Source of the DNA: Archangium sp.
GTDB lineage: Bacteria; Myxococcota; Myxococcia; Myxococcales; Myxococcaceae
Direction of reading: 5' to 3'
NCBI GenBank assembly: GCA_031367385.1
Contig: JANLPS010000511.1
Span: forward strand, 1 to 38,987
Length of the DNA stretch: 38,987 bases
Each line of letters opens with the position of its first letter. Within the stretch, counting starts at the first letter, position 1. Of the stretch, positions 3,916 to 38,557 are shown piece after piece. Position numbers and translations under genes: made by a program. The notes under the pieces were generated by a model, which saw only the letters and a program-made list of their open reading frames with translations, searched no databases and was not told the origin of the DNA.

Positions 3916-3927
3916 GGCGCGCCCTCG

Positions 3928-3948
3928 GACTCGTGCATCACACGAGTC
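3928..3948. promoter_or_regulatory. Perfect 8-bp inverted repeat just upstream of the ECF sigma start
   Basis: GACTCGTG-catca-CACGAGTC, 12 nt from the GTG start. Confidence 0.35.
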
Positions 3949-3990
3949 ACACGGGCGAGCGCCCCAGAAGCGGCCAAACGAAGCGAAGAA

Positions 3991-4224
3991 TTAGATGCGA
4001 ATGCCGCCGCGCGCGTCATCGGAGCGGGCGGTGTCAGGCAACTGCGTGGTCTCTGAGGCGCCCTTGAGCGACTCGAACATCACGCGTTTCACAGGCGGTT
4101 TCGGCTGCGCCTTCGAAGGCAGCGGCAACGGGGCCTGCGCCTTCTTCTCGGAGATCGCGCCAAACGCCACTGACGCGGAGAACATCGCGCCCACAGCCAC
4201 GGTCTTCAGGAGTGAAGTCTGCAT
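3991..4224 (-). CDS. Small secreted hypothetical protein (77 aa)
   Basis: ATG 4224 preceded by AGGAG. Signal peptide MQTSLLKTVAVGAMFSASVAFG followed by a Pro/Lys-rich mature part. Confidence 0.65.
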   Translation of the reverse strand: MQTSLLKTVAVGAMFSASVAFGAISEKKAQAPLPLPSKAQPKPPVKRVMFESLKGASETTQLPDTARSDDARGGIRI

Positions 4225-4279
4225 GGCCGGCTCTCCTACTCCACCCCACAACCGCTTGCCAAGTGGTTCCAGGCACACC

Positions 4280-5872
4280 ATGGTGCGCGCCTTCGTGCGC
4301 CGCCTCCCAAAGCTCGAGCACCTTGCGTGGTTTCTGGCCTTAATCTGCGGGGTTGCACCGCTGTGGGCCTCGCACGCGCTCCCGATGGTCGACCTGCCGC
4401 AGCACCTGCACTTGATCTCGGTGCTCCACCGGCTCGGCGACGCGAGCACCCTCTTCCCCGAGGTGTTTGCCCGGCGCCCCGTGCTCACGCCGTACCTCGG
4501 CTACTACTACGCGGTCTCGGGTCTGAACTGGCTGATGCCGCTCGAGCTGGCGAACACGGTGTTTCTCTCGCTGTACGTCGCCGGCCTGCCGCTCTCGTTG
4601 GCGTTTCTGTTGCGGAGCCTCCGGCGGCCGCGCTGGCCTGCGTTGCTGGCGATACCGTTCGCGTACGGCGACAGCTTCGGCTGGGGCTTCGTGAACTACT
4701 GCAGCGCGTTGCCGCTGGCATTTCTGACCTGCGGTCTCTTCGTGCGAGCGATTGAAGATGTGCCGCGGCGTCGAAGCTGGGCGATCGGGCTCGGCTTTTC
4801 ATTGGTGGCGGTGCTGCTCTTTCACGTGCAGGTCTTCGCCTGGCTCGGCGTGGCGCTGCCGATGCTGCTGCTGACGACTCCGGCACCCGAGGGGCCCAAA
4901 GCCTGGCGCGCGCGGGTGCCGGCCGTGCTCGGGGTGCTGCCGGGAGTGGTGCTGTTCATTCTCTGGGTGGGCCTGCGGGTGGGCGAGCCGGCGGAGATCG
5001 CTCCCGGGCAACCGTGGAAGTCGTGGGGCCCGATGCTCTCGCCCCAGAACCTCTCGTGGAAGTCGTTCGATCAAAACCGGGCCGAGTTCTTCCCGACGTT
5101 GTCGAGCCTGTTGCCCGACGGCAGCGATGCCCGAGCGGTGAACGTGGCGTTTGGGCTGGCCGCACTGGCCCTGGTGCTCGGCGTCGGGCTGGCGCTCATC
5201 AAGCGCGCTGACAACGACGTCGAGCGGGTGGGCCCGATCGCCCGTTTTCGCATGGTGGGCTTGGCGGCGTTGGCGCTGCTGCTCTACTTCGCCCTGCCCT
5301 TCGATATTCGCGGGTACATGTACTACCTCAACACCCGGTACGCGCATCTCGCCGCGGCCCTGCTGGTGTGCTGCGTGCCGGTCTTCTCGTCGTATTGGAG
5401 CAAACGCCTGGTCTGGTTCGGCGTGCTGGTCGCGATTCTCACTGCGCTGCCATTGAGCCGGGCGTTTCGGCTCTTCGATGAAGAAGAGAAGTCGCTCGAG
5501 GCGCTGGCGGCCTCAGCAGGCCCGAAGCCCCGCGTGATGGGCCTGGTGTACGCGACGGGGTCGAGGGCGGTGACCCACCCGGCGTTTCTGCATGCCTCGA
5601 CCGTGATCGCCCGGCTGGCGGGAGGCTTGACCAACTTCAGCTTCGCGCTGACTCCCCACTCACCGCTGATGTACAAAGGCGAGCCGCCGCCGACCTTCGC
5701 GAGCGAGTGGCGCCCCGATCAGATGCAGTGGGAGACGCAGGGCAAGTACTACGATCACTTCGTACTTCGCGGAGTGCACCCGCGGCAGGTCTTCGGCCCA
5801 TTGCTCGATTCACAGCTCGACATCGCCGCGCAATCGGGCGACTGGTTTCTGGTCAAGAAACGACACCCCTAA
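4280..5872 (+). CDS. Polytopic membrane protein, possibly a GT-C fold glycosyltransferase-like enzyme
   Basis: About 11-13 hydrophobic segments, a PMVDLPQH motif in the first loop, and a soluble C-terminal domain. Start moved to ATG 4280. Confidence 0.75.
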   Translation: MVRAFVRRLPKLEHLAWFLALICGVAPLWASHALPMVDLPQHLHLISVLHRLGDASTLFPEVFARRPVLTPYLGYYYAVSGLNWLMPLELANTVFLSLYVAGLPLSLAFLLRSLRRPRWPALLAIPFAYGDSFGWGFVNYCSALPLAFLTCGLFVRAIEDVPRRRSWAIGLGFSLVAVLLFHVQVFAWLGVALPMLLLTTPAPEGPKAWRARVPAVLGVLPGVVLFILWVGLRVGEPAEIAPGQPWKSWGPMLSPQNLSWKSFDQNRAEFFPTLSSLLPDGSDARAVNVAFGLAALALVLGVGLALIKRADNDVERVGPIARFRMVGLAALALLLYFALPFDIRGYMYYLNTRYAHLAAALLVCCVPVFSSYWSKRLVWFGVLVAILTALPLSRAFRLFDEEEKSLEALAASAGPKPRVMGLVYATGSRAVTHPAFLHASTVIARLAGGLTNFSFALTPHSPLMYKGEPPPTFASEWRPDQMQWETQGKYYDHFVLRGVHPRQVFGPLLDSQLDIAAQSGDWFLVKKRHP

Positions 5873-22704: not shown

Positions 22705-24966
22705 TCACTCCTGACATTTCATTTCGGCCATCGCAGCAGTGGCCTTTTCTTTGTACGTGTCACCGTCGACCGCGTACTCGAGCACCGCCTTGAGCTCTTC
22801 GCAGCTGTTCGCGGTCTTGAAGAACTCCGCCGCCCGGCCGGTGCACTTGTTGGTGACGGCGCGCAGCAAATCGGTGTCGCTCTTCGAGAACGACATGCCC
22901 AATTTCCACACCCGGCAGGCCTGCCGCCAGTCTTGGCGATCAGCGAAACCCTTGCCCTTCTGATAGGTGCTCTTGCTCATCTCTTCGAGAATGTTTCGGC
23001 GAACGAACGACTTGCGGCGATCGAGCTCACGGCGCAGCGCCTCGTTGGTGCCCACGGTCTCGCCCATCACCAGCTTCTCATCGATGGCCAGGGCGTTGCG
23101 AAAGGGCTCCTCGGCCTTCTCGGGCTTGTCGTTGCCCAGCTCGGTCGAGCCGCTCTTGTACTGGTTCGCCGCCGAGGTCATGTTTCGCGAGAGCTCGCGC
23201 GCCTGGTCATGCAGCTTCGACTTCTGCATCGAGTCTTGAATGCGCTGCACCGGCACCAGCATCTCTTGAAATTTGCCATCGAAGTACAGCTCGAGCGCGT
23301 GCCCCATGTCGGGGTCGGGGTAGCGCTTCATGAAGTCTTCTTTGGCGCGCTTGGCCGGGTCTTCACCTGCCTGCGGAGGCCGAAACACCAGCAGCTCGGG
23401 GCACACCCACGGAGGCTCATTCGGGGTCAGCCGCTCGCGGGCCTTCAAGAAGTTCAAGTAGAGCGGGTCTTTGGGCCGCCAATCGTTTCGGCCCAGGGGG
23501 CCATCGAGCTTGGCCTTCATCATCACCGGCGCCTGGCGTTCGTCTTTGTCCATCAGCTGGCAGGCCAGCCGGGTGTAGAGCTCGCAGCGCTTGACCGCGT
23601 TCTCCCACTTGCCGTTGGCCGCGTACTGTTTGCACTCGGTGCCGGCGAGCTTCTTCACGTCTTCAACCGGCCCCTTGGCTGCCGCGAGCGCCTTCAGAAA
23701 GTACCCGCAATCAGGGTGAATCTTGGCGAACAGGTCGAGCGACTCTTCGGCGCGACCCGCGGCGACCAGGGTCTTGGCCTGCTTCAGGCTCTCTTCGCAG
23801 GCCCGGTTGAGCGAAATGCGCTTCATCAGCTCGTTGGCCTCTTTGTGAATCGGCTCGAGCTCGAGCGCCGCCTTGCACGCCTCTTCGGCGCGCGGCCAGT
23901 TGGGGCCGGTCGCTGAATCCATCGCGGAGTATTGCCGGCAGGCACCGAGCGCCTCTTCGAGCTGTTCGGCCGGCGACACCGCATGCTTACCAGACCCCGG
24001 CCCCCCCCCGGCGATCGGCTCGATGCCACCGGGGCGCACGGTGGTGCGCGGGCCCATCCAGGCCTTGACGCCGACCATCACGAGCAAGAAGACCACCACC
24101 ACCGCTCCGATGATCAGCAGCCGCTTGCGACTGCCGGGCACCTTGGCGCTGGTGGGCTCGAAGTCGTCGTCGTCTCGGGTTCGGTCGCGGCGCACTGGCG
24201 CTCTTCGCGGCGACACCGGGGCCTCCTTTGCCCGCACGACCGCCTGCCGTGGCCCTGACCCCGCCGATGACTCGAAGATCAGCTCGACCACACCGAATTG
24301 AATGATGTCGCCGACGGTGAGGGCGGTGTCGGTGGTGATCGGCACGCCGTTGACGGTGGTGCCGTTGGCGCTGCTCAAGTCGCGGAGCACCACCTCGCGC
24401 CCCTTCACTTCAAGCTCGGCGTGCTTTCGGCTCACCGAGTCGTCTTCGACCTGCAAATCGACCTCGGGCACGCGCCCAACCACCATCGTGCCCTTGAGCA
24501 CGAACGACTTGCCGCTCACCGCGCCGGTCAGGCCACGCAGCTGCGGGCTGACCGACCGGTTGGGCTTGGTGCGTTTGGCGAGCGCCGCGGGGCCACCCGG
24601 CTTGACCGCGTCGACCACGCCGGTCGAACGGCTGCCAGCCGGCTTGGCCTTGCCCGAGCTGGGCGAGCGCTTCGAGCGCGGTGACTCTTTGAGCCGCACC
24701 TCGTAGTCACCCACCACGACCACCGAGCTCGAGGTGATCGCCGTCGGCCCGTCGATTTTGACCCCGTCGACGAAGGTACCGTTGGCCGAACCCACGTCTT
24801 CGACCTCGACCTCGTCTCTCTTCAAGAAGAAGCGCGCGTGCTTTCGAGACACGCCCCCTTCGGTCAAGATGAGATCATTGCCCTCGGCGCGCCCGATGGT
24901 CAGCTGACCACCCAGCGTCTCTTCGGTTTCAGAGCCATCGGGGTGGCGAATGACGAGCGTCGGCAC
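22705..24966 (-). CDS. Double-FHA membrane protein with a Cys-rich TPR-like periplasmic domain (KilD-like)
   Basis: Two FHA domains (IGRAEGN...VSRKHA...SANGT; VGRVPEV...VSRKHA...SANGT), one TM and a helical Cys-paired C-terminus. It directly follows the ATPase. Confidence 0.85.
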   Translation of the reverse strand: MPTLVIRHPDGSETEETLGGQLTIGRAEGNDLILTEGGVSRKHARFFLKRDEVEVEDVGSANGTFVDGVKIDGPTAITSSSVVVVGDYEVRLKESPRSKRSPSSGKAKPAGSRSTGVVDAVKPGGPAALAKRTKPNRSVSPQLRGLTGAVSGKSFVLKGTMVVGRVPEVDLQVEDDSVSRKHAELEVKGREVVLRDLSSANGTTVNGVPITTDTALTVGDIIQFGVVELIFESSAGSGPRQAVVRAKEAPVSPRRAPVRRDRTRDDDDFEPTSAKVPGSRKRLLIIGAVVVVFLLVMVGVKAWMGPRTTVRPGGIEPIAGGGPGSGKHAVSPAEQLEEALGACRQYSAMDSATGPNWPRAEEACKAALELEPIHKEANELMKRISLNRACEESLKQAKTLVAAGRAEESLDLFAKIHPDCGYFLKALAAAKGPVEDVKKLAGTECKQYAANGKWENAVKRCELYTRLACQLMDKDERQAPVMMKAKLDGPLGRNDWRPKDPLYLNFLKARERLTPNEPPWVCPELLVFRPPQAGEDPAKRAKEDFMKRYPDPDMGHALELYFDGKFQEMLVPVQRIQDSMQKSKLHDQARELSRNMTSAANQYKSGSTELGNDKPEKAEEPFRNALAIDEKLVMGETVGTNEALRRELDRRKSFVRRNILEEMSKSTYQKGKGFADRQDWRQACRVWKLGMSFSKSDTDLLRAVTNKCTGRAAEFFKTANSCEELKAVLEYAVDGDTYKEKATAAMAEMKCQE

Positions 24967-24969
24967 CCT

Positions 24970-26718
24970 CTAGTCCTCTCTGAAGATGCCCATGTTGACG
25001 GGCATGCCACGGCGCTGCAGGTCTTCGTAGAAGCGCGGCACGAAGCCCGACGCCACGAAGCGGCCCCGCACCTTGAAGTCTTCAGTGAAGCCTTCTTGCT
25101 TGAAGGTGAAGATGTCTTGCAGCGTGACGATGTCGACCTCCATGCCGGAGATCTCGGTGATGTACGACACCTTGCGCGTGCCGTCTGAGAAGCGCGATTG
25201 CTGCACGATGATGTGCACCGCGCTGGCGATCTGCTCGCGAATGGCCTTCACCGGCAGGTCCATCCCCGCCATCAGCACCAGGGTCTCCAAGCGGGCCAGC
25301 GCGTCACGTGGGGTGTTCGCGTGCAGGGTGGTCAGCGAGCCGTCATGGCCAGTGTTCATCGCCTGCAACATGTCGAGCGCTTCACCCGAGCGGCACTCGC
25401 CGATCACGATTCGCTCGGGGCGCATGCGCAGGCAGTTCTTCACCAGGTCGCGAATGGTGACCGCGCCTTTGCCTTCGAGGTTGGCGGGGCGTGACTCGAG
25501 CTGAACCCAGTGCTCTTGATGCAGCTGCAGCTCGGCCGCGTCTTCAACCGTAATGATGCGCTCATCTTCGGGGATGAAGGAGCTCACGATGTTGAGCGTG
25601 GTGGTCTTGCCCGAGCCGGTGCCGCCCGAGATGATCGTGTTCTTGTGCGCCTTGACGCACATCTCGAGAAACTCAGCCATCTGCGGCGTGAGCGTGCGGT
25701 ACTTGATCAGATCTTCGATGCGCAGCGCCTCTCGCTTGAACTTGCGAATGGTGATGCACGGCCCCTTGAGCGCCAACGGAGGGATGATCGCATTGACCCG
25801 CGAGCCATCTTTGAGCCGGGCGTCGACCATCGGGCTCGACTCGTCGATGCGGCGGCCGATCGGAGCGACGATGCGCTCGATCACCCCCAGCACCGCCTGG
25901 TTGCTCGAGAAGATCTTGTCTGACAGCGTCAGCTTGCCCTTCTTCTCGATGTAGATCTGGTTGGCGTGGTTCACCATGATCTCGCTGATGTCGTCGTCAG
26001 CGAGAAAGGCCTCGAGGGGCCCCAGGCCCAGCGCCTCGTTGAGCACGTCGGTGAGCAACATCGAACGGTCGATGTCGGCGGGTATCTCGTTGTCGCCGTC
26101 CATCTGCTCGAGAATGTCGCGAATCGCTTTTTCGGTTCGCTTCCACAGCTCCTCGTCGCCGAGGCGGTCCATGTCCATTCGGCGGAGGTCGAGGTATTCG
26201 ATCAACCGGTCGTGAATGTCTTTCTGCAGGTTCGAGTACGCCTCGATGCGCGGGTCGGGGCCCTTGCCACGCCGCCGCAGCGCCGAGGCCAGTGACGCCG
26301 GCATGTTGTTCTTCTTCGCCACCACCGCTGCGGGCGCAGGCGCCGGGTCATCAGCCCCGTCGTCGTCGTGCTCTTCGGGCTCGTCGTCTTCGTCTTCGTA
26401 CTCACCGGCCGCCTCGAGGTCTTCTTCGCTCGGGGCCTCGATGTTGATGGTGTAGTCGCCGATCTGCACGCGGTCGGTGGGCTTGACCACCTGCGGAGCG
26501 CCGATTTTCTTGCCGTTAATGAACGTGCCGTTGGTCGACTTCAGGTCGACCACGATGTACTTGCCGTCTTTGAGCACGAAGCGCGAGTGGTACTTCGAGA
26601 CGTTGCCCTTGTTGAGCACGAGGTCATTGCCCGCAAGGCGGCCGAGCGTGACTTCGTCTTTGTCGAACGTCACTTGCGACGTGTCGCCGCCCTTTTCGGC
26701 GAGCGTGATCAAAAACAT
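24970..26718 (-). CDS. cpaF: FHA-fused Tad pilus assembly ATPase CpaF/TadA (KilF-like)
   Basis: N-terminal FHA (LGRLAGND...VSKYHS...STNGT), GLGPLE, RRIDESSPMVDARL, Walker A GGTGSGKTT, LRMRPERIVIGECR and MNTGHDGSLTTLHAN. Confidence 0.95.
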   Translation of the reverse strand: MFLITLAEKGGDTSQVTFDKDEVTLGRLAGNDLVLNKGNVSKYHSRFVLKDGKYIVVDLKSTNGTFINGKKIGAPQVVKPTDRVQIGDYTINIEAPSEEDLEAAGEYEDEDDEPEEHDDDGADDPAPAPAAVVAKKNNMPASLASALRRRGKGPDPRIEAYSNLQKDIHDRLIEYLDLRRMDMDRLGDEELWKRTEKAIRDILEQMDGDNEIPADIDRSMLLTDVLNEALGLGPLEAFLADDDISEIMVNHANQIYIEKKGKLTLSDKIFSSNQAVLGVIERIVAPIGRRIDESSPMVDARLKDGSRVNAIIPPLALKGPCITIRKFKREALRIEDLIKYRTLTPQMAEFLEMCVKAHKNTIISGGTGSGKTTTLNIVSSFIPEDERIITVEDAAELQLHQEHWVQLESRPANLEGKGAVTIRDLVKNCLRMRPERIVIGECRSGEALDMLQAMNTGHDGSLTTLHANTPRDALARLETLVLMAGMDLPVKAIREQIASAVHIIVQQSRFSDGTRKVSYITEISGMEVDIVTLQDIFTFKQEGFTEDFKVRGRFVASGFVPRFYEDLQRRGMPVNMGIFRED

Positions 26719-26730
26719 GGGCGGCCCTTT

Positions 26731-28170
26731 TCAGTCAAAAATGCCGAAGGTGACTTCGCCGCGCGCCTGCTTGTAGCGGCTCTTCACGTCTTCGATGATC
26801 GTTCGAATCTTGTCAGAATCGGGGTTCACGATTCGAGGCGTGACGAAGATGACCAGCTCGCGCTTGCTCGAGTCGAACGCCCGGTTTTTGAACAGCTCTC
26901 CGATGATGGGTATGTGCCCGAGCCCCGGCAGCTTCGAGACCGACTTCTGCTCGTCGTGTGAGAACACACCCGAGAGCACGATGGTCTCACCGTGCCGAAC
27001 GGTGACGTTGGTCTTGACCTTGCGGGTTCGAAAGCCCGGCACCGACGCGCCGCCACCGACCGAGACCGCCACCGAGAGGTCGATCTCAGAGACCTCGGCC
27101 TCGAGCTCAGTCTGAATGTTGCCGTTGCGGTCGGCGGTGGGCTGAATGTTCAAGATCACGCCGTACGGTTTGTACTCGACGGTGAACTGGTTGTTGGTGA
27201 TGAGCGGTATCGGCACCTCGCCACCGGCGGTGAACGAGGCCTTCTCGCCGCTCGCGCAGACCAGCTTCGGCTGGGCCAGCAACCGGCCGTAGCCGTCGTT
27301 GTTCTGAAACCCGATGTTGAAGTCGCCGCTCGCGCGAAACGGTGAGCTCAAGTCGCCCTGCGCAAAGTTACCGGGGAAGAGCTCTTTGGTGATGTTCACC
27401 GTCGCGGTGACCGAGCCCGAGATGTCGGTCGGGTACTTGATGCCGTAGCGGTCTTTCGAGTCGCGCCGAATCTCGACGAACTGCACCTCGGTGAGCACCA
27501 TGCGCTTGATGCCGACGACCAGCAGGTTTTCGACGTGCTCGCCGATCGCCTTGGTGATGAGCTCTGCCTTGGCCAGGTCTTGCTGCGACTCGACCGAGCC
27601 CTCGAGAAAGATGGTCGCGCCGACCACGTTCGCCGAGACGTTCTTGAGGCCCGCCTTTTGAAACGCCGCGTTGAGGTTCTGCGCCACCAGCTTCTTGGCG
27701 TTGGGCGCGATCTTCACGAAGTTCTTCACGTTCGGGTACAGCTCGGCCACCTGCTGAATCTTGTCGGCGTCGCCCTGCGTGTAGGCCTGGCCGTCGAGGT
27801 AGATGCGGTCTCCGACCTGACGGGTGATGACGCCTTCGACCCCGTCGAGGAGCTTCTTGATCTCGCTGACGACCTGGTTCGGGTCGACCTTGCGAACGGT
27901 GATCATGTAGTTGACCCGCGAGCCGTTGCTCTTCCACACCAGCAGGGTGGTTCGGCCTTCGGCGTTGCCGGTGATCAAGAGCTGGCCGTTGGTCAGCGCC
28001 TTCACGTCGGCGATGGTGCTGTTACCGACCGCGACTCGGTTGACGCCCGCGATGGTGACGACCTTTTGTGCCCCTTCAGCGAGGCCGATTTCGCCGCCCT
28101 CCTGGGCCCAAGCCGGCACGGCGATGACCAACGCCAGGGCCGACAGACGAAGAAATGCGAGGCTCGGCAT
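26731..28170 (-). CDS. cpaC: Tad secretin CpaC/RcpA with pilus-formation N-domain and BON domain (KilC-like)
   Basis: Signal peptide, RVAVGNSTIADV, LAQPKL..SGEKASFTAGGEVPI, YKPYGV, KLPGLGHIPIIGELF and ELVIFVTP. Confidence 0.93.
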   Translation of the reverse strand: MPSLAFLRLSALALVIAVPAWAQEGGEIGLAEGAQKVVTIAGVNRVAVGNSTIADVKALTNGQLLITGNAEGRTTLLVWKSNGSRVNYMITVRKVDPNQVVSEIKKLLDGVEGVITRQVGDRIYLDGQAYTQGDADKIQQVAELYPNVKNFVKIAPNAKKLVAQNLNAAFQKAGLKNVSANVVGATIFLEGSVESQQDLAKAELITKAIGEHVENLLVVGIKRMVLTEVQFVEIRRDSKDRYGIKYPTDISGSVTATVNITKELFPGNFAQGDLSSPFRASGDFNIGFQNNDGYGRLLAQPKLVCASGEKASFTAGGEVPIPLITNNQFTVEYKPYGVILNIQPTADRNGNIQTELEAEVSEIDLSVAVSVGGGASVPGFRTRKVKTNVTVRHGETIVLSGVFSHDEQKSVSKLPGLGHIPIIGELFKNRAFDSSKRELVIFVTPRIVNPDSDKIRTIIEDVKSRYKQARGEVTFGIFD

Positions 28171-28249
28171 GTACTCCCTCTCTTGCTCGAAAGCGCTTAC
28201 GAGTCAGAGCGGCAGGGTATCACCAGAGCTGGCAAATCATTGAAGCGAA

Positions 28250-29011
28250 TCAGCGGTAGACGAACTTCACCTTTTCGCTGCAGATGAAGTACTCGTCGCC
28301 GTCTTCGATCTTGCGCCGCTTGATGCGCTGCTTGTTGAACCAGGTGCCGTTCGACGAGCCCAGATCTTCGATGAAGAACTCACTGCCATCGCGGCTGATG
28401 ACCGCGTGCTCGCGCGAGACCTTGCCCGAGTTGATCACGAAGTCGCAGTGCTTGCCGCGGCCGATCACGAAGCGCTCTTTGGCGATGCGGTCGAGCTCTC
28501 CACCTTCGAGCATCATGTAGAGGGCGGCGGCACCACCGGCTTCACCGCTGCTGTCATCGACGTCGACCCGCATGCTGCCGCTGCTGCTGTCGGGGTTGTC
28601 GAGGCCTTGTTCTGAGTTCTGCGCGCCTTGATTCTTCGATTTGATCAGCCGTTCGAGCTCAGCGGCGGTCTCGAGCACGCGTTCTTGCACCTGGCGGCGA
28701 ACCGGGTCGTCGTCCATCGACCCTGCCGGCTCACGGGGCTGGGCCACCGGTTTGAGCATCGGCGGAGCACCGGGCGACGCATTGCGAGACGGGCCCGCAC
28801 CTCGACCCGCTGACGCCGGGGCCGCGGCTTTACCCGCCGCCGGAGCGCCACCCGAATCGAGAAACCCATTGAGCCGGGCGAACATGAACATCGCTTGGTT
28901 TATGAGCGCGTCGCGGTCTGACCCCATCTGGGAGGCCATGTCTTCAAACGCCTGCCAAATGTGGTCAGCAATGGCGACCTTGCGCGGCGGCCGTGAACTC
29001 GGATCCATCAT
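28250..29011 (-). CDS. FHA domain protein with an N-terminal ribbon-helix-helix-like domain
   Basis: C-terminal FHA IGRGKHCD...VSREHA...DLGSSNGTW. N-terminal RKVAIADHIWQAFEDMASQMGSDRDALINQAMFMF. Start uncertain (29041 GTG or 29011 ATG). Confidence 0.85.
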   Translation of the reverse strand: MMDPSSRPPRKVAIADHIWQAFEDMASQMGSDRDALINQAMFMFARLNGFLDSGGAPAAGKAAAPASAGRGAGPSRNASPGAPPMLKPVAQPREPAGSMDDDPVRRQVQERVLETAAELERLIKSKNQGAQNSEQGLDNPDSSSGSMRVDVDDSSGEAGGAAALYMMLEGGELDRIAKERFVIGRGKHCDFVINSGKVSREHAVISRDGSEFFIEDLGSSNGTWFNKQRIKRRKIEDGDEYFICSEKVKFVYR

Positions 29012-29118
29012 GCTCAGCGACACCCTCTCGTGGGATTGCACAACGCGACTGCGGTTTCGTCACGATACCTGAACATGCCCCACGCGGCCAATCTCTGATG
29101 CGGGCGGCCCGTCGATCT

Positions 29119-31116
29119 TCAGTGGTAGCAGTACGTGCCTTGAAGGGCCCCGAGCGCGACCCGCTGAGCCAGCCCCGGGTCGACGTCGATCACGCTGTTG
29201 CTCGAGGGGTACAGCACGTACACGTGCGCCCGGCGGTTATCGACGATCACCTGGCCCGGCAGCTGGGTCGAACACCCCACGCTGTTGGGGTCAACGATGA
29301 ATGAATACGGGGAGTAGCCGCTGGCAATGAAGAACTGCCACAGCGAGCCACGGCCCACGCCCGCATCGACCGTGTCGAGACCGAATGACATCGTCAGTGC
29401 GGGCTTGGAGGGATCGTACCCACTTAAGCGCACATACGGCACCGCTTCATTCCACACGAATTGATCGCCCGCTCCGGCGCGGCCCAGGTACCGCGGCTGC
29501 TGGCCTCGAAAGATGGCGAAGGGTGCGGCAGGGCCGGCGCGAACGTTGAACGAGATGACGTCGAAGCACCCGCGCGGCACCGCGGCGATCGAGATGGTGT
29601 CGACGCCGATCGCGGTGATCGGCGCATCGGCACACAACGCGGCCGCGCTTTGAAAGACGACGAAATCGCCCACCTTGAGCCGAGGCACCAGGCTCACCGG
29701 CACGGCGAGCGTGGTCGACGGCGCGGCGATGGGGAGCGAGGCGTCGTTCAAGATGCCCTCCCAGAAGGTCTGAATCAGCTGGGAGCGCCACACGCCATCG
29801 GCCACCGAGATGCTCTGCGCGCGGAGGTTTGAGTCGGTGCCGGCGTCGAGACCGGTGACCCACTCTGCGAGGTAGCCGTTGTTGTCGAAGTACAGCGGGT
29901 TCGAGGCGTACGCCTGGTTGTCGTCGCCGTCGATCTGCAACAGCGTGGTGCTGTCGAAGAAGGTGACTTGGCCGTTGGCCGAGGTCGCCACGCCGAGGGC
30001 CGCATACCAGTTGAGCGAGATGCCGCCGTCGCCGTTGGCGGTGAGCAGCCGGGTGACTCCCGAGTCGGCGGTGAACGACGGGTTGGTGCCGATGGCCAGG
30101 CCCACCGGGAGTGAATCTCCGAAGGTCAGCGGCAGCATCGCGCCGCCGTCGGCGTACTGCGCGACGGGGAAGCCGCCGGTGCGCTCGTGCGAGGTGACCG
30201 TGTCGACCGCGATCACGCCGCCGCAATTCGAGCCGCCGCATTTTTCTTCGTCGAGAATCGCGAAGATGCGGTGCCCTGCCCCGCGCGCCGGCGTATCGAG
30301 GCCGTCGGGCAACACGGTCTGCCCATTGGTGGTCAAGAACCGCACCGGCCCGGGGTACCCCAAGGGCGCCCGGCGCAGCGAGACCGGGTCGATCATCAGG
30401 GTCTGGCCGTCGGTGCCGCTCGCGCGACGGGTGCCGACCACCAGGCAATGATTCACCGTCAGGTCGCAGAAGGCCTGGTCTTCGGCGGTACGGCCATTCA
30501 AACCGGGCACCACCAACATCGAGACCACGGTGTCGCTGCCGAAGGTGATCACCAGCTTGATGAGAGAGGTCAGCTGCGCCGCCGGGAGCGCTCGCAGCGC
30601 CGCGGGGCTGGTCGGCAGGTCAATCGAGTACAGGCTGCCGAGCGCGCCATCGTAGGTCGCGAAGTAGAGCCGGCTGCGGTCGGCGTCGAGCTTGACCGCG
30701 GCGGTGCTGGTGACCGGCGCGGGGCTGACCAGGCGTGAGATCTCTCTGAACTCGGCGCGTGCGGCGCCGACCACCGACATCTCGGAGCCTCCGGGGCGGC
30801 TCACGTAGAGGTAACTGCCGTGCACCACGCGGCCGTTGACCCATTGGTCATCGAGCGCAAGCGAGGTCGGCCGGGTGATGACTGGTATCGAGAGCGTCTC
30901 GAGCGGGTTGGGCGCCGCGACATAGGTGCGTTGCCCAGGCGAGTTCGGCACGGTGAGCTGCAGCACTTTGAGGTCGTTGGTGTCGGCCGAGGTGATGAAC
31001 AGGTACTCGTCGGTCAGCGCGAGATCGTGCGCCCCCGAGAGGCCACCGCGCGAATACCCCGACGATGGCGTACAGGCCGCGAGCGCGAGCCCCAGCACCA
31101 GCAGGCGGCGCATCAT
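29119..31116 (-). CDS. Beta-propeller-like lipoprotein of the Tad/Kil cluster
   Basis: Lipobox LALAAC, beta-rich sequence with several Cys pairs. ATGA overlap with the upstream gene. Confidence 0.8.
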   Translation of the reverse strand: MMRRLLVLGLALAACTPSSGYSRGGLSGAHDLALTDEYLFITSADTNDLKVLQLTVPNSPGQRTYVAAPNPLETLSIPVITRPTSLALDDQWVNGRVVHGSYLYVSRPGGSEMSVVGAARAEFREISRLVSPAPVTSTAAVKLDADRSRLYFATYDGALGSLYSIDLPTSPAALRALPAAQLTSLIKLVITFGSDTVVSMLVVPGLNGRTAEDQAFCDLTVNHCLVVGTRRASGTDGQTLMIDPVSLRRAPLGYPGPVRFLTTNGQTVLPDGLDTPARGAGHRIFAILDEEKCGGSNCGGVIAVDTVTSHERTGGFPVAQYADGGAMLPLTFGDSLPVGLAIGTNPSFTADSGVTRLLTANGDGGISLNWYAALGVATSANGQVTFFDSTTLLQIDGDDNQAYASNPLYFDNNGYLAEWVTGLDAGTDSNLRAQSISVADGVWRSQLIQTFWEGILNDASLPIAAPSTTLAVPVSLVPRLKVGDFVVFQSAAALCADAPITAIGVDTISIAAVPRGCFDVISFNVRAGPAAPFAIFRGQQPRYLGRAGAGDQFVWNEAVPYVRLSGYDPSKPALTMSFGLDTVDAGVGRGSLWQFFIASGYSPYSFIVDPNSVGCSTQLPGQVIVDNRRAHVYVLYPSSNSVIDVDPGLAQRVALGALQGTYCYH

Positions 31117-32594
31117 TGGCCCACTCCCGCGTCACAGAGCGACGGGTTTCGCTGGCCTTGCGTCAGGCACAGCTGCTGCTCACCTAGGTGCGCGACCAGG
31201 CGTGCGTCTTGAGGTCGCAGCAGGTCGGGTATGTCGATGACCGCGATGCGGCCGTCGTCGAAGTCGCTCACGTACAACCGGGCACCCGCGCCGCGCAAAT
31301 CGACGGTGACGTCGAAGGGTGAGAGGCCGACGCCGTTGACCTGCGCGACGAGATCTCCCACTTCGTCGTCGTAGATGGCGACCGACTGCGCGCCGGTGCA
31401 GGCGATGACCAGCAGGTCGCTGCGCCCCACCCGCGGTATGATTCGCATCTCGTTCGGGCTGGCCGGCAACGGCACCGAGCGCGCGACCTGAATGATCGGC
31501 CGCACCGCGCTCGGGTCATCGATGGTTGCCACGAGCAACGAGTCGGGTATTCGGGCGGCGATGTAGATTCGGCGCTCGTCACTCGAGAGCTGAATGCCGC
31601 GCGCCTCGATCGCCCGAAAGCTCTGCTCGAGCCCGGCGCTGTAGACCAAGGTGCCGCCGTCGTCGTTGATCGTCTCGGGGTCGACCAGGCGCATCAGGTT
31701 GCCAGTCGGGTTGAGGCCCCGGCCGCTGGTGAACACATAGCGCCTGCCGCTCACCACGCTGTTGGTCGCGCCGACACCGATGTTGATGAAGCTGCTCTCG
31801 GTCACGGTCGGGTTCTGCGAGGCGAGGCGAATCAGGTAGCCGCGCGGCAAGAGACCGGTGGCCAGCGGGGAGTCGGCCTGGGTGATGTGGGTGACGAAGA
31901 CGTCGGCGTACGGCTCGGCGACGCCGGCCGGGTTGGTGGTCATGCAGCGGCCCGCCTGACAGGTGCCGACCGGGCATGAGGTGGTGCACGCGCGGGGGCG
32001 AACGGCGACGCCGAACGGGCCTGGCGCTCGGGGCACTCCGGTGGTGCTCAGCTCGAAAGCCTTGGGGCTGAGCGACGGAGCGTTGGTGCCGCAGTCAGAG
32101 GGGCTGGTGCCCTCGGGAGTCGAGCAGTGCAGCACCGGTTGAGCCGTCGGTGAGGCCAGCGGGTCGGCGTCGATGGCCTGCAGCTTCATGCCCTCGGAGC
32201 GCGAGGGGATGAACAGGCGCGTGCGCCCGCCGCCCAGATCGAGCGCGGCCATTTCTCCGGCGAAGCTGGTGATGAGCACGATACCGGCGTCGTTGACGTT
32301 GAGGGGCAGCTGCACCGGGCCTTTGGGGCCGACCGGGTCTCCGAACGTGGGCAGGCCGAGGGTCGAGAGGTTCAGGCCCACCACCGACCCCGACGAGTAG
32401 CGTTTGTCGAAGTTGGCGTTGGCGACGAACAGCACGCCTTCGGGCGAGAGCGCCGAGTCGACATGCATGATCCCACTGGGGAAATAGAACTGCCCCGATG
32501 GCGGGAGGTTGCCGTTGCCCACGCCTGAAGGGCAGCCAGTGACCCAGGCGGCCAGCACCAGCGCGAAAACGAAGGCGAACGAAGTTCGAACCAT
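31113..32594 (-). CDS. YncE-like beta-propeller lipoprotein, first gene of the Tad/Kil cluster
   Basis: Lipobox VTGC, FYFPSG, LFVANANFDKRYSSG and VGLSPFDV...RLYVSDF. Confidence 0.82.
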   Translation of the reverse strand: MVRTSFAFVFALVLAAWVTGCPSGVGNGNLPPSGQFYFPSGIMHVDSALSPEGVLFVANANFDKRYSSGSVVGLNLSTLGLPTFGDPVGPKGPVQLPLNVNDAGIVLITSFAGEMAALDLGGGRTRLFIPSRSEGMKLQAIDADPLASPTAQPVLHCSTPEGTSPSDCGTNAPSLSPKAFELSTTGVPRAPGPFGVAVRPRACTTSCPVGTCQAGRCMTTNPAGVAEPYADVFVTHITQADSPLATGLLPRGYLIRLASQNPTVTESSFINIGVGATNSVVSGRRYVFTSGRGLNPTGNLMRLVDPETINDDGGTLVYSAGLEQSFRAIEARGIQLSSDERRIYIAARIPDSLLVATIDDPSAVRPIIQVARSVPLPASPNEMRIIPRVGRSDLLVIACTGAQSVAIYDDEVGDLVAQVNGVGLSPFDVTVDLRGAGARLYVSDFDDGRIAVIDIPDLLRPQDARLVAHLGEQQLCLTQGQRNPSLCDAGVGQ

Positions 32595-32603
32595 GTGCGG
32601 CCC

Positions 32604-32632
32604 GCCTTAGACGGTGCCCCACCCCCGCGCAA
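32604..32632 (-). promoter_or_regulatory. Putative promoter of the Tad/Kil operon
   Basis: TTGCGC-17 bp-TAAGGC, 9 nt upstream of ATG 32594. No SD. Confidence 0.35.
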
Positions 32633-32701
32633 CAGAACAAAACCCTTGGGGATTCTGTTCGGCGAGGCGGTCATTTCAACGCGGCGTCTCGCCACGGTCA
32701 G

Positions 32702-32812
32702 AACTTGGAGCTCGTTTGAGCTTGGTTTCGGCCAACTTCCCGAATTCGAGCTCGTTTGAGCCTGGTTTTGGCCAACTTCATCGAATTCGAGCTCGTTTGA
32801 GCCTCGGCTTCG
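32702..32812. repeat. Intergenic tandem repeat, about 2.7 copies of a 40-41 bp unit
   Basis: GAGCTCGTTTGAGC starts at 32708, 32748 and 32789. The unit continues yTGGTTTyGGCCAACTTC..CGAATTC. Confidence 0.85.
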
Positions 32813-32932
32813 GCTGCGGCCAGCATTTTCGACTCCCAAGTGCTCGAAACGTCAGCGCAAAAAAAGAAATGAAGCGCGGTGAATAAGCCGAAACGGGCCA
32901 CGTCAACCCACGCACGCTGCGCAATCTCGCGC

Positions 32933-33697
32933 ATGCCCAAAACAAGACTGAGGTCGCGGATGAAAGCGAAGAAAGAAGAAGTGGTGGTTGGTGATGTCTT
33001 GCAGCTTCAAGCGGAGTCGATACCGGCGGAGGCGGTGCAGCAAGGTCTGCGCATCGACCCACTGACGGCGAAGCGCGCGTTCAACGCGGGCATTGCGATC
33101 GTCTCGGAGAACCAGGTTGAGCTGAAGCGGCTCTTCCCCGGTGCGAACCTCGAGGAGATCTTCGCCCTGCCCGTGCTGTGCGATCGTTTCGCGGTGGCGA
33201 ACAGCAATGCCATTTCGTCTCGTCGCATCAAGCCTCCGTCTGCGGCTCGGCCGCTGATCGCGACCGCGTTGCTGTGGCGGCGCAAGCTGATGTCGGTCGC
33301 GCAGACCCTGGTCGCCAATGGCAAGGTCGATGCCGTTGCGGTCGCTCGAATTCGCGCCGGCCGCGGGCCGCTCGACGGAGTGACCGATGTGGTCGCGCTC
33401 GTCGCGCTGCTGAAGCCGTTTCCCGACGTGATCGAAGTGACCTGCGACGCCTCGGCACTCTCCCAGGCCAGCGCCGCGGCCACCGCGGCCCTCTCGGCTC
33501 TCGGCTCCGAGGCCGCACCCGACACCGCGGCGATCGATCTGCGCGATCGGTACGCAACGTTGATCGCTCGCGGCCATGACCGCCTGCGAGTCGCCGTGGC
33601 GGTGCTCCGCTCGTACCGCGAGGCCGCTGAAGTGGTCGGCGTGCTCACCAAGCACGCACCTCGCAAGCTGAAAGTCGTGCCCCCCGCTCCGCTGTAA
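32933..33697 (+). CDS. Hypothetical helical protein
   Basis: ORF of about 250 aa with alternative starts at 32933 or 32960, followed by a hairpin. No recognised domain. Confidence 0.7.
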   Translation: MPKTRLRSRMKAKKEEVVVGDVLQLQAESIPAEAVQQGLRIDPLTAKRAFNAGIAIVSENQVELKRLFPGANLEEIFALPVLCDRFAVANSNAISSRRIKPPSAARPLIATALLWRRKLMSVAQTLVANGKVDAVAVARIRAGRGPLDGVTDVVALVALLKPFPDVIEVTCDASALSQASAAATAALSALGSEAAPDTAAIDLRDRYATLIARGHDRLRVAVAVLRSYREAAEVVGVLTKHAPRKLKVVPPAPL

Positions 33698-33712
33698 ACC
33701 GAAGGGTTGAAC

Positions 33713-33747
33713 CGAGGGCTCACCGGCATCGTCGCGGTGGGCTCTCG
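33713..33747 (+). terminator. Stem-loop after the hypothetical gene, possible terminator
   Basis: 13-bp stem CGAGGGCTCACCG / CGGTGGGCTCTCG with 2 G-U pairs and a 9-nt loop. There is no U-tract. Confidence 0.4.
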
Positions 33748-33798
33748 CTCTGTCGTCACACTGCGGGCATCGACTGCCCCGGGCAGATTGAAGCTGCA

Positions 33799-35255
33799 GT
33801 GAAATCATTCTCGGCTTTTGAGAAGGCCGTCGAGTTGTCAGTGAGGGGCGGGGTTGGTACGACCGACGCTCGCGTGTCGGTGTCCCCTGTTCGCAGCTTT
33901 GATCTCGCAACGGCGTTGACGTTGTTGCCGCGTCTCGAGAACCCTGCGGCGCGTGCGGCGATTCTCAAGGCGAAGAGCGAGGCCCGAGCGACCGTCGAGC
34001 TCGACGTCGGCTGGTTGCCCAAAGACCTGAGCGGAGTCGAGGAGCGTCGCGAAGAAGGGCTTCGACGGCTCGAGCGCTTTTGCGGCTGCGACGTACGGAG
34101 CCCAAGGGCTACGCGACGGGTGCCGTCAACGTCGTGCTCGACACGGCCAACCTCGTCAATCGCGCGACGAATGCGGTGCTGACGCCGCTGGGTGTGCCCG
34201 CGTTCAAGACTGACGGCCACGTTGACGCGACCTCTGAGGCCGAGGCCAGCGCGCAACGGGCAGTTCGACTCGCGTCTTTCGTCGTTCCTGTTGGCGCTGC
34301 GCTCAACTCAGCTCGCGCCACGGCGACGGTGACGGCGGCTGCGCGCGCGGTTGCGGCTGAACGCATGGCAGCTGCTCCTGTCGCGGCCGAGGCAGCGGCC
34401 GCTCACGCGCGGACTGCCGCAGCGGCTCCAGCCGTGGCGCGGACTCCAGTGGCTGCGACGGCGGCGCCTGTCGTCGCTCGAACGGCAGTGACGGCGGCTC
34501 CGGCCGTGGCTCCGACCGCTGTGGCTTCGACGGCGGCTCCGATGGCTGTGGCTTCGACGGCGGCTCCGACCGCTGTGGCTTCGACGGCGGCTCCGACCGC
34601 TGTGGCAGTGACGGCGGCTCCGACCGCTGTGGCTTCGACGGCGGCTCCGACCGCTGTGGCAGTGACGGCGGCTCCCGCCGTAACTCCGGCTGTTGCAGCT
34701 GCGGCTCCCGTCGTAGCTCGAACGGCAGTGACGGCGGCTCCGGCCGCGGCTCCAATTGTTGTGGCTCCGACCGCTGCGGCTGCGACGACAGCTCCCGCCG
34801 GGGCGGCTGCGGCGGCGGATGCGGCGGCTGCGGCCAAAGTGACCGCGACGGTGGCCCGGGTGCGACCGGTTCGTCCTCCGTCACCGTTTCCTCAAGCGGC
34901 TCCGGCGGCGCGACGACAGAATTTGAGCACGCGCTCGGCCCAGCCGGTCGAAACGCACCGAATCAAAGAGCACGTCTTCAACGGCGAGCTCGATGCCGCT
35001 CGCGTCGAGGCCAACACTGGCACCTTGCTCGAGAAGCACGGCCGCGAATGGAACCACGTCGAAGAGCTCCGGGCCGCGCAGAGCGCGCTGCTGAACCGAA
35101 TCAAAGAGCTCAAGCGCGACCTCAACAAGCCGCTGTATCAATTCTCAGAGGCCCAGCGCGTCGAGGCGACCCGCGAGCTCAAAGAGGCCAGCACGTTGCT
35201 CGACAAGACCGAAGGTTTCTTGCCGCGCGTGAAAGCGCCGCCAAAGCCGAAATAG
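33799..35255 (+). pseudogene. Frameshifted polymorphic-toxin-like gene with an Ala-rich repeat linker and a C-terminal Ntox28-like tRNase domain
   Basis: The C-terminus IKEH...ELDAAR...REWNHVEEL..AQSALLNRI..LK..LNKP...ELKEASTLLDKTEGFLP fits Ntox28. The coding-like frame switches near 34045 and 34101. Confidence 0.65.
34521..34682 (+). repeat. Six tandem 27-bp coding repeats (VA[S/V]TAAPTA)
   Basis: GTGGCTTCGACGGCGGCTCCGACCGCT-like units start at 34521, 34548, 34575, 34602, 34629 and 34656. Confidence 0.92.
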
Positions 35256-35475
35256 CGCCCAAGGGCGACGGTTCGCCCAATACCCGAGCCGAGTGCGACA
35301 CAGCGTCAACGACTGTCGCTGTGCCGCCCCGACGGCTTCGCGGGGGGGGCGACCTCCGGGGCCAACGACCGTCAACAGCAGCCGCCCACCAGGCCGCGCG
35401 GCGGTGCCGCCGGGTGACTTCGGGTGCAGCGTCGCGCACGAGTGTGTGAGCAGCAGCAACCCGAATCGCACGCCT

Positions 35476-37587
35476 TCACCCTTCTGTTTTGGCCTCGGCC
35501 TGAATCTTCGAGAAGTCGGCGACGGTGCCGAACAGGCCGGCGATCTCCATGAGCAGCCGCACCCGGTTCGCTTTCACGGCCGGGTCATCGGCGATGACCA
35601 TCACGCCATCGAAGAACGCGTCGACGTGGGGCTTGAGGGGCACGACTTTGGCCAACGCTCCAGCGTAGTCGTCGACCTTCACGGCGGCGAAGACCGCGTC
35701 GCTGACCTGTGAGACCTGGGCAAAGAGCGTCTTCTCGACCGCCTCGGTGAGCTTGGCCGGGTCGACGGGAGCCTTCGACACGTCTTTGGCCTGCTTCTCG
35801 ACGATGTTCGCGACCCGCTTGAACGTGGCCGCCAGCGCCGCGAAGTCGGGCTGCCCGACGTACTTCGAGATGGCCTCGAGCCGCTTCTGGGCAGCGACCA
35901 GATCATCGAACCCCGCCGCAAGCACCGCATCGACCACGTCGGCCCGGTGATTTTCACGCCAGGTCGATTCGAGGCGGCCGCGAATGAACTCGAGCACCTG
36001 ATCTTTGAGCGGCGCATCGGTGGGCTTCTTCTTCACGTCAGCGAACTTGGGCTCGAGCGCCTTGAGCGCCTCGTCGATCGCGGCCGCCAATGAGAAGCGG
36101 TACCCCCTGCCGGTGACGATGCGAATGAAGGTGATCGCCGCGCGGCGCAACGCGAAGTCGTCTTTCGCGCCAGTGGGCTTCTTCCCAATGCCGAAGAGGC
36201 CGCACAGCGAATCCAACCGGTCGGCGAGGCCAATCAGCGCGCCGGCGTCTTGGGTTGGGAGGCCGTCGCCTGCTCCGCGCGGCAAGTAGTGCTCGAAGAT
36301 CGCGGTCGCGACCTCAGGCGTCTCTTTGTCGTGCAGCGCGTACTCACGACCCATCACCCCCTGCAGCTCGGGGAACTCGCCCACCATGCCGGTCTGCAAG
36401 TCGGCCTTGCACAGGTACGCCGCGCGTTCGACGGTCGGCACGATCTTCTCGAGCTTCACCGCCTTCGCCAGGTACCCGGCGAGTGCCTGAATGCGCTTGG
36501 TCTTCTCGGCCATGCTGCCGAGCTTGTCGATCCACGAGCGGCGCTCGAGCTTGGGCAGGCGGCTCTCGAGCGTGGTGCGGCGATCTTCGTCGAAGAAGAA
36601 CCGGCCGTCGGCCAGGCGCGAACGCAGCACGCGCTCGTAGCCGCGCACCGACAATGCCTCGTCTTTGACCGGCGTATTCGAGACCGCGATGAACTTGGGC
36701 AGCACCTTGCCGGCCGCGTCGGTGAGGGTGAAGTAGCGCTGGTGGCTCTTCATCTCTTGAATCAACACCTCGGGGGGCAGATCGAGGTGTCGCGCTTCGA
36801 ACGTGCCCACCACCGGGTTCGGCAGCTCAATCAGGTTGAGCACCTGATCAACCAGCGCCTCGTCTTGCAATACCGTGCCGCCTGCCTTCTTCGCCGCCGC
36901 CGCGATGCGCTCGTTGAGCAGCGCGCGACGCTTGGTCAAATCGGCCACCACGTGCGCCTTCTCGAGCGCTGCCTCGTAGTCAGCGGGCTTGTCGATGGTG
37001 ATGGCCGCCGGAGCCAGAAATCGGTGCCCGTAGCTCACGCGCCCGCTCTTCACGTCAGAGAACGTGACCGGCACCACCTCGGTGCCCAGCAGCGCCACGA
37101 TCCACTGCAGTGGGCGGCCGAATGACTGCTCGACGTCACCCCATCGCATCGACTTCGCGAAGTTGATCTTTCGCACGCAGCCGTTGAGCACCTCGGAGAG
37201 CAGCTCGAACGTGCGCCGGCCCTTCTCTTCGACCGTCGCCACGAGATACTCGCCCTTGGGCGTAGTCACCCGCCGGAGCTTCTCGACCGGCAGCTTCACG
37301 CTCTCGGCGAACTTGATCGCCGGAGTCTTCGGCGTCGTACCGTCAGCCTCGAACGCGGCCTTCACCGACGGGCCTTGCACCTCTTTGGTGACGTCGTCGG
37401 TCTTTTCGGCGACTCCATTGACCAGCAACGCCAGGCGCCGCGGGGTGGCGAAGCGCTTGACCTCTCCGAAGGTGATGTTCAACGCCGCGCACTGCTCGCG
37501 AAACGTCTTCTCGATGTCGTCGAGCGCGGGCACCACGAACCGGGCCGGGAGCTCTTCAGAGCCCAGCTCAAAAAGCAGCTCAGCCAC
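35476..37587 (-). CDS. glyS: Glycine--tRNA ligase beta subunit
   Basis: [64 protein letters not shown] and a DALR domain. Confidence 0.98.
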
Positions 37588-38557
37588 GCGGCGCCTCTTT
37601 CTCTTTCTTCTCGAACGACATGGTCTTCCACATCTCGCTGGCGGGTTTGCCCTCGAGCATCGGCAGCTGCTCGCCGACCGTCCACGCGGTTTTGCACAGG
37701 GGCCAATCGAGCTTCTGCCGCATCTTCAAGTACCCCTCGGCGCACAGCGCGGCGTTGTCTCTGACGCGTTTGATGTACCCGGCCCGGTCGGTCACCGAGA
37801 TGGCCCCGCGCGCGTCGAGCAGGTTGAAGGCATGGCTGCACTTGAGCGCGAAGTCGTACGCCGGCAACGGCAGCTGCTTCTCGACGATCAACCGCTTGCA
37901 CTCGGCCTCGTAGCTCTTGAACAGCATCTCGAGCTGCTCGGGGTCAGAATCGCGCTGCGCGTACTGCGACATCTCGACCTCGTTGGCGTGAAAAATCTCT
38001 CGGTACTTCACGCCCTTGACCCACTCGATGTCGTACACGCTCTCGACGCCTTGCAAGTACATCGCGATGCGCTCGAGCCCGTAGGTCAGCTCAGCCGCGA
38101 CCGGCTTGCACTCGTAGCCGCCGCACTTTTGAAAGTAGGTGAACTGGGTGATCTCCATGCCATCGCACCAGACCTCCCAGCCCAGGCCCGAGGCGCCGAG
38201 GGTCGGTGACTCCCAGTCGTCTTCGACGAAGCGAATGTCGTGCTCGAGCGGGTCAATGCCGAAGGCGCGAATCGAGTCGAGGTAGAGCGCCTGCACGTTC
38301 TTGGGCGCCGGCTTGAGCAACACCTGAAACTGGTGGTGCTGAAAGAGGCGATTGGGGTTCTCACCGAATCGACCATCGGCCGGGCGTCGCGAGGGCTGCA
38401 CGTACGCCACGTTCCACGGCTCGGGGCCGAGGGCGCGCAGAAACGTGTACGGGGCCATGGTGCCAGCGCCAACCTCGGTGTCGTACCCCTGGGTGACGAT
38501 GCAGCCGAGCTTCGCCCAGTGGTTCTGCAAGGTGAGCAACAAGTCCTGAAAATACAT
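37580..38557 (-). CDS. glyQ: Glycine--tRNA ligase alpha subunit
   Basis: [56 protein letters not shown] and [16 protein letters not shown]. Confidence 0.98.

Follow-up and report, generated by a model that had tools for sequence, protein, structure and literature searches.

The question raised by this locus is whether a predicted tRNase toxin gene lying beside a Kil-type predation cluster encodes an effector with which a myxobacterium kills its prey. The effectors delivered by the Kil/T3SS* machine are described as unknown or hypothesised in the accessible portions of PMC12075869, PMC10433427 and PMC12428579, in line with the first-pass annotation of this DNA, which had treated them as undefined. 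The window analysed here is the whole stretch of 38,987 nucleotides from Archangium sp. and constitutes an entire contig, C316, of genome G000, an assembly of 7.97 Mb in 562 contigs with a completeness of 98% and the gene content of a member of the Myxococcaceae. The sequencing runs containing it are freshwater sediment metagenomes. The features of the window are listed in Table 1, where the names glyS and glyQ are those which we take the sequences to indicate.

Table 1. Coordinates of the features of the toxin locus and its surroundings in the window
Feature	Position	Strand	Basis or remark
Kil cluster I-like operon	22705..32594	-	Pfam/NCBIfam matches; composition as MXAN_3102-3108
Multi-FHA protein (operon)	22705-24966	-	
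FHA-fused ATPase (operon)	24970-26718	-	
Secretin (operon)	26731-28170	-	
FHA protein (operon)	28250-29041	-	
Two predicted lipoproteins (operon)	29119-31116, 31113-32594	-	
Stretch between glyS and first Kil-cluster gene	32595..35475	.	2.9 kb; missing in most relatives
272-aa gene, no known family	32879..33697	+	part of inserted stretch; five paralogues elsewhere in G000
N-terminal piece of broken toxin gene	33874..34041	+	87.5% identical to P0001 residues 1-56
Frameshift break 1 (approximate)	34042	+	frame shift between P0001 residues 56 and 58; in X1-X6 contigs
Second piece, other frame	34043..34114	+	75% identical to P0001 residues 58-81
Frameshift break 2 (approximate)	34102..34103	+	not in X5 strain
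Conserved pre-toxin module, begins KGYATGAxN	34104..34331	+	family alignments and searches
Ala/Pro/Thr-rich linker, longer than that of P0001	34332..34930	+	27-bp tandem array at 34508-34675, 6.2 copies
Ntox28 toxin domain	34935..35225	+	Pfam, profile and model; HxxE at 35055-35066; ORF stop at 35253-35255
Gap before convergent glyS stop	35256..35475	.	220 bp, without immunity-like gene
glyS (35476-37587) and glyQ (37580-38557)	35476..38557	-	usual upstream neighbours of the cluster

A single toxin gene had been proposed to span positions 33799-35255. This stretch measures 1457 bp, is indivisible by three and contains two ORFs in different frames, one starting at 33799 and ending at 34182 and the other, which encodes the Ntox28 domain, extending from 34080 to 35255. 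Together with this length, the three-frame alignment to the protein P0001 rules out a single ORF from 33799. P0001, whose tip is 96% identical to that of the window, is one of two intact 329-aa orthologues, the other being a protein of the congener G046, and aligns with the window at 33874-34041 (87.5%), 34043-34114 (75%) and 34104-35252. An HMM search divides the locus likewise, with one piece corresponding to residues 58-82, and the window copy is thus spread over three frames instead of forming a single open one. The alignment places the homologous start at the GTG codon at 33874, where P0001 and the G046 protein begin as well, and the breaks near 34042 and 34102. The N-terminal domain is small and has a predicted beta-alpha-alpha-beta fold (AF2 pLDDT 72-92 over P0001 residues 1-50), while the single-sequence model of P0001 is poor past residue 50 and yields no fold match. 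Assembly error as the origin of the breaks is ruled out by contigs from the sequencing runs, which derive from two studies, one of them possibly the source of the assembly. The X1, X2, X3 and X4 contigs cross both breaks with zero differences from the window, the X6 contig bridges the first break only, and the X5 contig, from a slightly different strain, contains the first break and not the second; X7, the last of the seven runs aligned, yielded no contig here. The strain with the first break alone indicates that this break is older than the second, which is the usual pattern of decay. Prior to breakage the toxin gene appears to have been under purifying selection, given dN/dS values between the window and G046 of 0.24 for the N-terminal domain, 0.40 for the module and 0.39 for the tip (rough NG86 estimates, dS ~1.2). 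A leftover frame of 391 aa (34080-35255) retains the module and tip and loses the N-terminal domain, and no ribosome-binding site is evident in the sequence before 34080. Judged from its sequence, the window copy is a twice frameshifted pseudogene, likely non-functional, and given the two frameshifts the claim of a working effector at this locus is not supported. The remaining description of the reading frame stands, in that the spacer is indeed Ala-rich (47% Ala in the linker) and a Sec signal is absent, with no lipobox in evidence and no signal-like hydrophobic stretch at the N-terminus of the intact orthologue.

The assignment of the toxin tip to Ntox28 is borne out by a search with the Pfam model (PF15605; 53.4 bits, E 3.3e-14, cut-off 25), the match being the sole one in the G000 genome, and the reported motifs are found at 34962-34973 (IKEH), 35049-35066 (WNHVEE) and 35187-35204 (ASTLLD). 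No paralogues of the tip, module or N-terminal domain were found elsewhere in G000. A direct phmmer search of the tip against the PDB missed the CdiA-CT of E. coli 536, which was recovered with a six-sequence profile of the tip (5J5V, E 6e-13). Modelled with AF2 (mean pLDDT 79), the tip is predicted to be all-helical, as is CdiA-CT536, and the top two Foldseek matches of the model are 5J5V and 5J43 (probability 1.0, TM ~0.6, E 0.016 and 0.055), with no match at E <0.001. The K[DE] and [DN]HxxE motifs given as the Ntox28 signature in a table of PMC3482391, as far as that source was available, occur in the window tip as IKEH and WNHVEE. The active site of CdiA-CT comprises Asp155, Trp176, His178 and Glu181 (PMC9086364, consulted as an excerpt). 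Trp176, His178 and Glu181 are kept in the window tip. The window, P0001 and G046 all have Glu at the position of Asp155, as had been observed for the window, while Asp is retained in G116 and L004-L006. In the KIDN motif further upstream, Asp is replaced by His in the window and P0001, and Trp176 by Phe in the G046 protein, with His178 and Glu181 retained in all three Ntox28 members. The C-terminus reads ...KAPPKPK and, as previously remarked, has no GYGI, presumably the CysK-binding C-terminal tail of CdiA-CT. The tip is predicted to represent a tRNA-cutting (anticodon nuclease) domain.

The neighbouring operon has the composition described for Kil cluster I, MXAN_3102-3108, in the available part of PMC8460266. 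A gap of ~80 bp (28171-28249) occurs between its FHA and secretin genes, and the prepilin peptidase KilA, found in cluster I of M. xanthus, is not encoded in the operon. The toxin start first proposed lies 1205 bp from the first cluster gene, matching the distance of about 1.2 kb originally given. The toxin is, moreover, encoded on the strand opposite to the cluster and points away from it, and a 272-aa gene overlooked in the first-pass annotation sits between the two. This gene may belong to a dispersed or mobile gene family; its paralogues (~40% identity) on contigs C522, C468, C356, C332 and C41 occur in unrelated contexts. A 40-bp tandem repeat (2.6 copies, 32708-32814), unique in the genome, is located at the edge of the inserted stretch, and the Logan contigs end there. 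Among 31 other loci inspected, glyS lies directly next to the start of the cluster in 29, with gaps estimated at -18 to +137 bp, the exceptions being G065 and G046. The sample, which is not random, consisted of the 29 best-scoring non-self matches along with G186 and G187. The 2.9-kb stretch of the window thus represents a lineage-specific insertion. With the slot empty in these 29 loci, and with the intact G046 orthologue unlinked, being located on another contig beside a histidine kinase, neighbourhood conservation speaks against the notion that position ties the toxin to Kil. The first cluster gene is present in 201 of 208 family genomes and a SctV/FlhA gene in 348 of 401 phylum genomes, so that co-occurrence of the toxin with these genes is uninformative. 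The place of the toxin beside the Kil cluster is probably incidental. The single result favouring an effector slot is that both genomes of the genus carry a signal-less effector-like gene there, the G046 slot (L044:3863-5254) containing a divergent class-3 lipase gene (PF01764) whose leader is Pro-rich and in which a signal peptide is not evident. The slot is on this account perhaps not wholly random, and two cases are too few to tell a slot for effectors from a hot spot of insertion. In G046 the gene for the first lipoprotein of the Kil cluster (L044:2096-3612) is apparently split over two frames. A lipase-like ORF (by eye) without an evident signal peptide is also found in G000 (contig C45, L110:154-1329), ~3.7 kb from the sole SctV/FlhA gene of this genome.

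Behind the N-terminus, the toxin and its relatives have in common a module of ~75 aa, which defines the family. The module is found in 27 proteins (90% clustering), in 26 representatives among 1.84 billion (E <1e-10 for 21) and in eight of 401 phylum genomes; within the family-level set it occurs in four of 208 genomes, after five weak matches which proved to be histidine kinases were dropped. These genome tallies include the unpublished genome G049 as one row. An iterated module search added six loci from contig collections. The stretch at 34104-34331 is also found in two genomes whose proteins end in Ntox50, and the tips encountered across the family are NTase-like, Ntox28, Ntox50, weak CdiA_C and weak Fic, along with several unnamed ones, some of which are kinase-like or GNAT-like by eye. 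The NTase-like tip, with a GS...DxD motif, is the commonest (19 of 33 tree rows), and is assigned by an Atlas score of 0.91 to an NTase cluster, its Pfam match (E 0.39) being below threshold. N-terminal relatives with swapped toxin tips, for which a search had been proposed, therefore exist, and a common N-terminal part joined to exchangeable C-terminal toxin domains is the feature by which polymorphic toxins are recognised. The members constitute a small polymorphic toxin family, rare and patchy in the Myxococcota, of which no description was found in the literature searched, a set from which subscription papers, for the most part, and supplements with possible effector lists were absent. Neither the leader nor the module has a match in Pfam, NCBIfam or the PDB, and the Atlas leads for the module, MafB (0.85) and PT-TG (0.83), are below the 0.9 level. 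The tree of the module (33 rows, without G250, which the motif search had missed) is weakly resolved, with 14 of 30 branches open and the long branches joining at the Ntox28 rows, and no order of tip swaps is therefore claimed. Searches with single proteins matched P0001 only or nothing, and weak matches to the N-terminal domain in six other genomes were set aside, the three of seven loci that were read being in the wrong frame or unrelated. In G046, the N-terminal domain of the toxin is also fused to a GNAT-like tail (by eye) in a possibly broken gene (L027:7280-7888, minus strand) upstream of a DUF7689 gene. A second broken member is possibly P0034, which matches P0036 until the tip begins and from there on departs from it as a frameshifted sequence would. 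The genes on either side of one NTase-tipped member, a CHAP-domain gene and a long unknown one (L082:1296-2024, 3801-5426), are both co-oriented and have low-complexity leaders, forming a possible effector-like gene cluster.

The role of the module is suggested by an Rhs protein, P0046, which contains the module (E 4.3e-6; 33% identity to P0001 over 66 residues) followed by an Ntox28-like tip (E 1.6e-4). The module directly follows the predicted Rhs cleavage site. This arrangement, and the occurrence of the module ahead of many tips that must act in the cytoplasm, suggest that it is an entry subdomain. P0046, although one protein only, provides the best evidence for the module as the entry half of the toxin payload. 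The hydrophobicity of the module is modest, with a 19-residue maximum of 1.3-1.55.

Most leaders in the family are of low complexity (S/T/G/P-rich) and have no signal peptide, while four members (P0024, P0026, P0027 and P0038) have Sec-like leaders. The window member has a small folded domain as its leader, whereas those of the other members are unstructured. Leaders of the low-complexity kind resemble type III secretion signals. No lipobox, Rhs repeat or PAAR domain was found in the intact Ntox28 members, and the gene for the T6SS sheath (PF05943) was found in none of the five carrier genomes tested, out of eight (all but G186, G187 and G285). A SctV/FlhA gene (PF00771) is present in all eight carriers against a background of 348 of 401 genomes, the model being blind to the difference between flagellar and type III gates. 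By elimination, a type III route for the Sec-less members may be entertained as the likeliest of those considered, if only as a tentative proposal, while it is doubtful, again by elimination only, that the T3SS*/Kil predation machine specifically is the route. When the family leader was searched as a general secretion signal in five genomes only family members were matched, with nothing in G000; as the leader is not common to other genes, a type III signal of general use did not emerge. The N-terminal motif (FxGxSxF, DSFE) likewise showed no enrichment as the mark of an effector class in G000. Genomes G243, G285, G250 and G263, which also have several SctV/FlhA genes, encode KilF-like proteins (L106-L109) in which the FHA part is retained (53-60% identity) and the ATPase part is only 25-34% identical.

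The observation that no small co-oriented ORF follows the toxin holds, as none that is gene-like occurs ahead of the convergent glyS. The intact orthologue in G046 is similarly followed by 137 bp up to a convergent gene, with no gene-like co-oriented ORF in between. The ORFs at 35048-35449 and 35293-35712 were rejected as immunity genes, having no Pfam match in the parts scanned and overlapping the toxin or lying antisense to glyS, as was a 47-codon ORF at the stop of the G046 toxin, where codon bias is not gene-like. CdiI_3 was not found in the G000 and G046 (87% complete) genomes, and in the control genome G116 it follows the Ntox28 gene. Ntox28-like tips are accompanied by at least two immunity types, CdiI_3 (G116) and a HEAT-repeat gene (L006). 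The latter, a probable second immunity type, occurs after the Ntox28-like-tipped gene in L004, L005, L006 and L008, genes which presumably encode SitA-like lipoproteins, and the present family might therefore conceivably rely on an unlinked immunity gene of a different type. Among 14 family loci an immunity-like neighbour is absent from ten, namely both Ntox28 loci, all seven NTase-like loci and L085; in three of these the next gene is co-oriented but long. In the other four (G186, G187, G250 and one G263 copy) a small co-oriented ORF abuts the toxin gene and is judged immunity-like by position and size, with no Pfam immunity match in any. Close kin among the 14 loci (G186/G187, L082/L084) reduce the number of independent cases. 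The proposal that these toxins form a class that needs no immunity protein thus holds for a part of the family only and does not extend to the four loci with an abutting immunity-like ORF.

The reading that we consider probable, if well short of certain, is that the window contains a dead toxin copy that came to lie between glyS and Kil cluster I through a chance insertion, and that its intact relatives are predicted tRNA-cutting toxins for export. The intact relatives would be exported without a Sec signal, the Sec-less members perhaps leaving via the myxobacterial type III export gate, the shared pre-toxin module would let the toxin enter a neighbouring bacterium, and the tip would then cut the tRNA of this neighbour. 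The family may have arisen through the placement of Rhs-type payloads, each of a module and a tip, behind other export leaders, with low-complexity leaders acquired in most members, Sec-like leaders in four and a small folded domain in the window member. The producer might be spared because the toxin is unfolded or inactive until delivery, or because the tip, with Glu for Asp155, is weak, and the ease with which an unprotected toxin would be lost fits the breaks in the window copy. It seems questionable that the family goes further and supplies accessory prey-killing effectors, Rhs-type payloads placed behind type III leaders, to the needleless T3SS*/Kil machine, so that most would need no immunity gene; on that reading, the window would hold a dead member and the cultured Myxococcus strains the live ones.

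That the Ntox28 members are decaying relics, which lost their immunity gene and had their tip detoxified by substitutions, such that the immunity-less members are not weapons, is rather unlikely. Such decay would account for the substitutions of Asp155 (Glu in the window and G046), Trp176 (Phe in G046) and the KIDN Asp (His in the window and P0001), the two breaks and expanded linker of the window copy, the resemblance of P0034 to a frameshifted P0036 and the rare and patchy distribution of the family (four of 208 family genomes), but sits poorly with the retention of His178 and Glu181 in all three Ntox28 members and with dN/dS values of 0.24-0.40 over a dS of ~1.2. The NTase-like form, which makes up 19 of the 33 tree rows and has no immunity-like neighbour in seven of seven loci, further looks like a stable design and not like decay. 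It is also improbable that the members serve in kin discrimination or competition and leave the cell by some route outside type III, such as lysis, vesicles or Sec/type II, with their immunity encoded elsewhere or unrecognised, since kin discrimination requires linked immunity, which is missing in ten of the 14 loci, and since the intact Ntox28 members have no lipobox, Rhs repeat or PAAR domain and the T6SS sheath gene was found in none of five carriers tested. The four members with Sec-like leaders (P0024, P0026, P0027 and P0038) and the toxin-immunity layout of four of the 14 loci would fit this origin, as would the scattered layout, the toxins of myxobacterial kin discrimination being typically encoded in scattered toxin-immunity cassettes according to the accessible part of PMC10433427.

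The original proposal of a working, Kil-linked prey-killing effector could be upheld only via the shortened ORF at 34080-35255 or recoding, and is very improbable. The 391-aa ORF does retain the module and tip, and the slot of the congener also holds a signal-less effector-like gene, the lipase (PF01764). The gene has, however, two breaks, one of them polymorphic among strains, the short ORF lacks both a visible ribosome-binding site before 34080 and the N-terminal domain, and linkage to Kil is countered by the opposite strand, the intervening gene, the slot empty in 29 of 31 loci and the unlinked intact orthologue.

As the pseudogene of an uncultured organism, the locus itself reveals little on Kil. 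The family it belongs to, which might include toxins that these predators deliver to prey, supplies named candidate effectors, short proteins for the most part without a signal, in which the module is constant and the tip varies, some of them in cultured Myxococcus species (P0018 and P0019). A further question that it poses is how toxins acting in the cytoplasm persist without an adjacent immunity gene, as seen in ten of the 14 loci. Should the type III route prove true, the family would exemplify the export of antibacterial polymorphic toxins through such a system. The rarity of the family (eight of 401 genomes) suggests that it is at most an accessory part of predation.

Among known systems, the operon beside the toxin has the make-up of cluster I of the Tad-like Kil/T3SS* machine of M. 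xanthus, but shows no conserved linkage with the toxin family, whose presence in only two of the 32 genomes of the genus holding the Ntox50 members indicates that it is not a core killing activity. The tip has the domain family (PF15605; 5J5V and 5J43), the predicted fold and Trp176, His178 and Glu181 in common with the CdiA-CT of E. coli 536, and differs from it by Glu in place of Asp155, by the missing GYGI tail and by the broken gene. A CdiBAI system is not what is encoded, as the intact form is a protein of 329 aa with PF15605 as its only domain and has no CdiA filament, CdiB or CdiI. Tox28 of Ruminococcus lactaris is an Ntox28 toxin outside CDI which acts independently of CysK (PMC9086364, as excerpted), and a missing CysK tail therefore need not mean inactivity, although this toxin differs from that of the window in its Gram-positive host and other delivery system. 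The myxobacterial SitA lipoprotein toxins and T6SS effectors resemble the family in that their genes are scattered singly and their tips are swapped, Ntox28-like tips being found in certain SitA-like proteins (L004-L006), and differ in that the family has no lipobox or PAAR domain and mostly no adjacent immunity gene; the lipobox and immunity gene that define SitA are thus absent, as are the Rhs repeats and PAAR domain of Rhs and T6SS effectors and, in the five carriers tested, the T6SS sheath gene. In comparison with Rhs toxins, the family members have no Rhs repeats, are mostly 260-600 aa in length and have a short leader in place of the Rhs cage, while in P0046 the same module and an Ntox28-like tip are carried after the predicted cleavage site of an Rhs protein.
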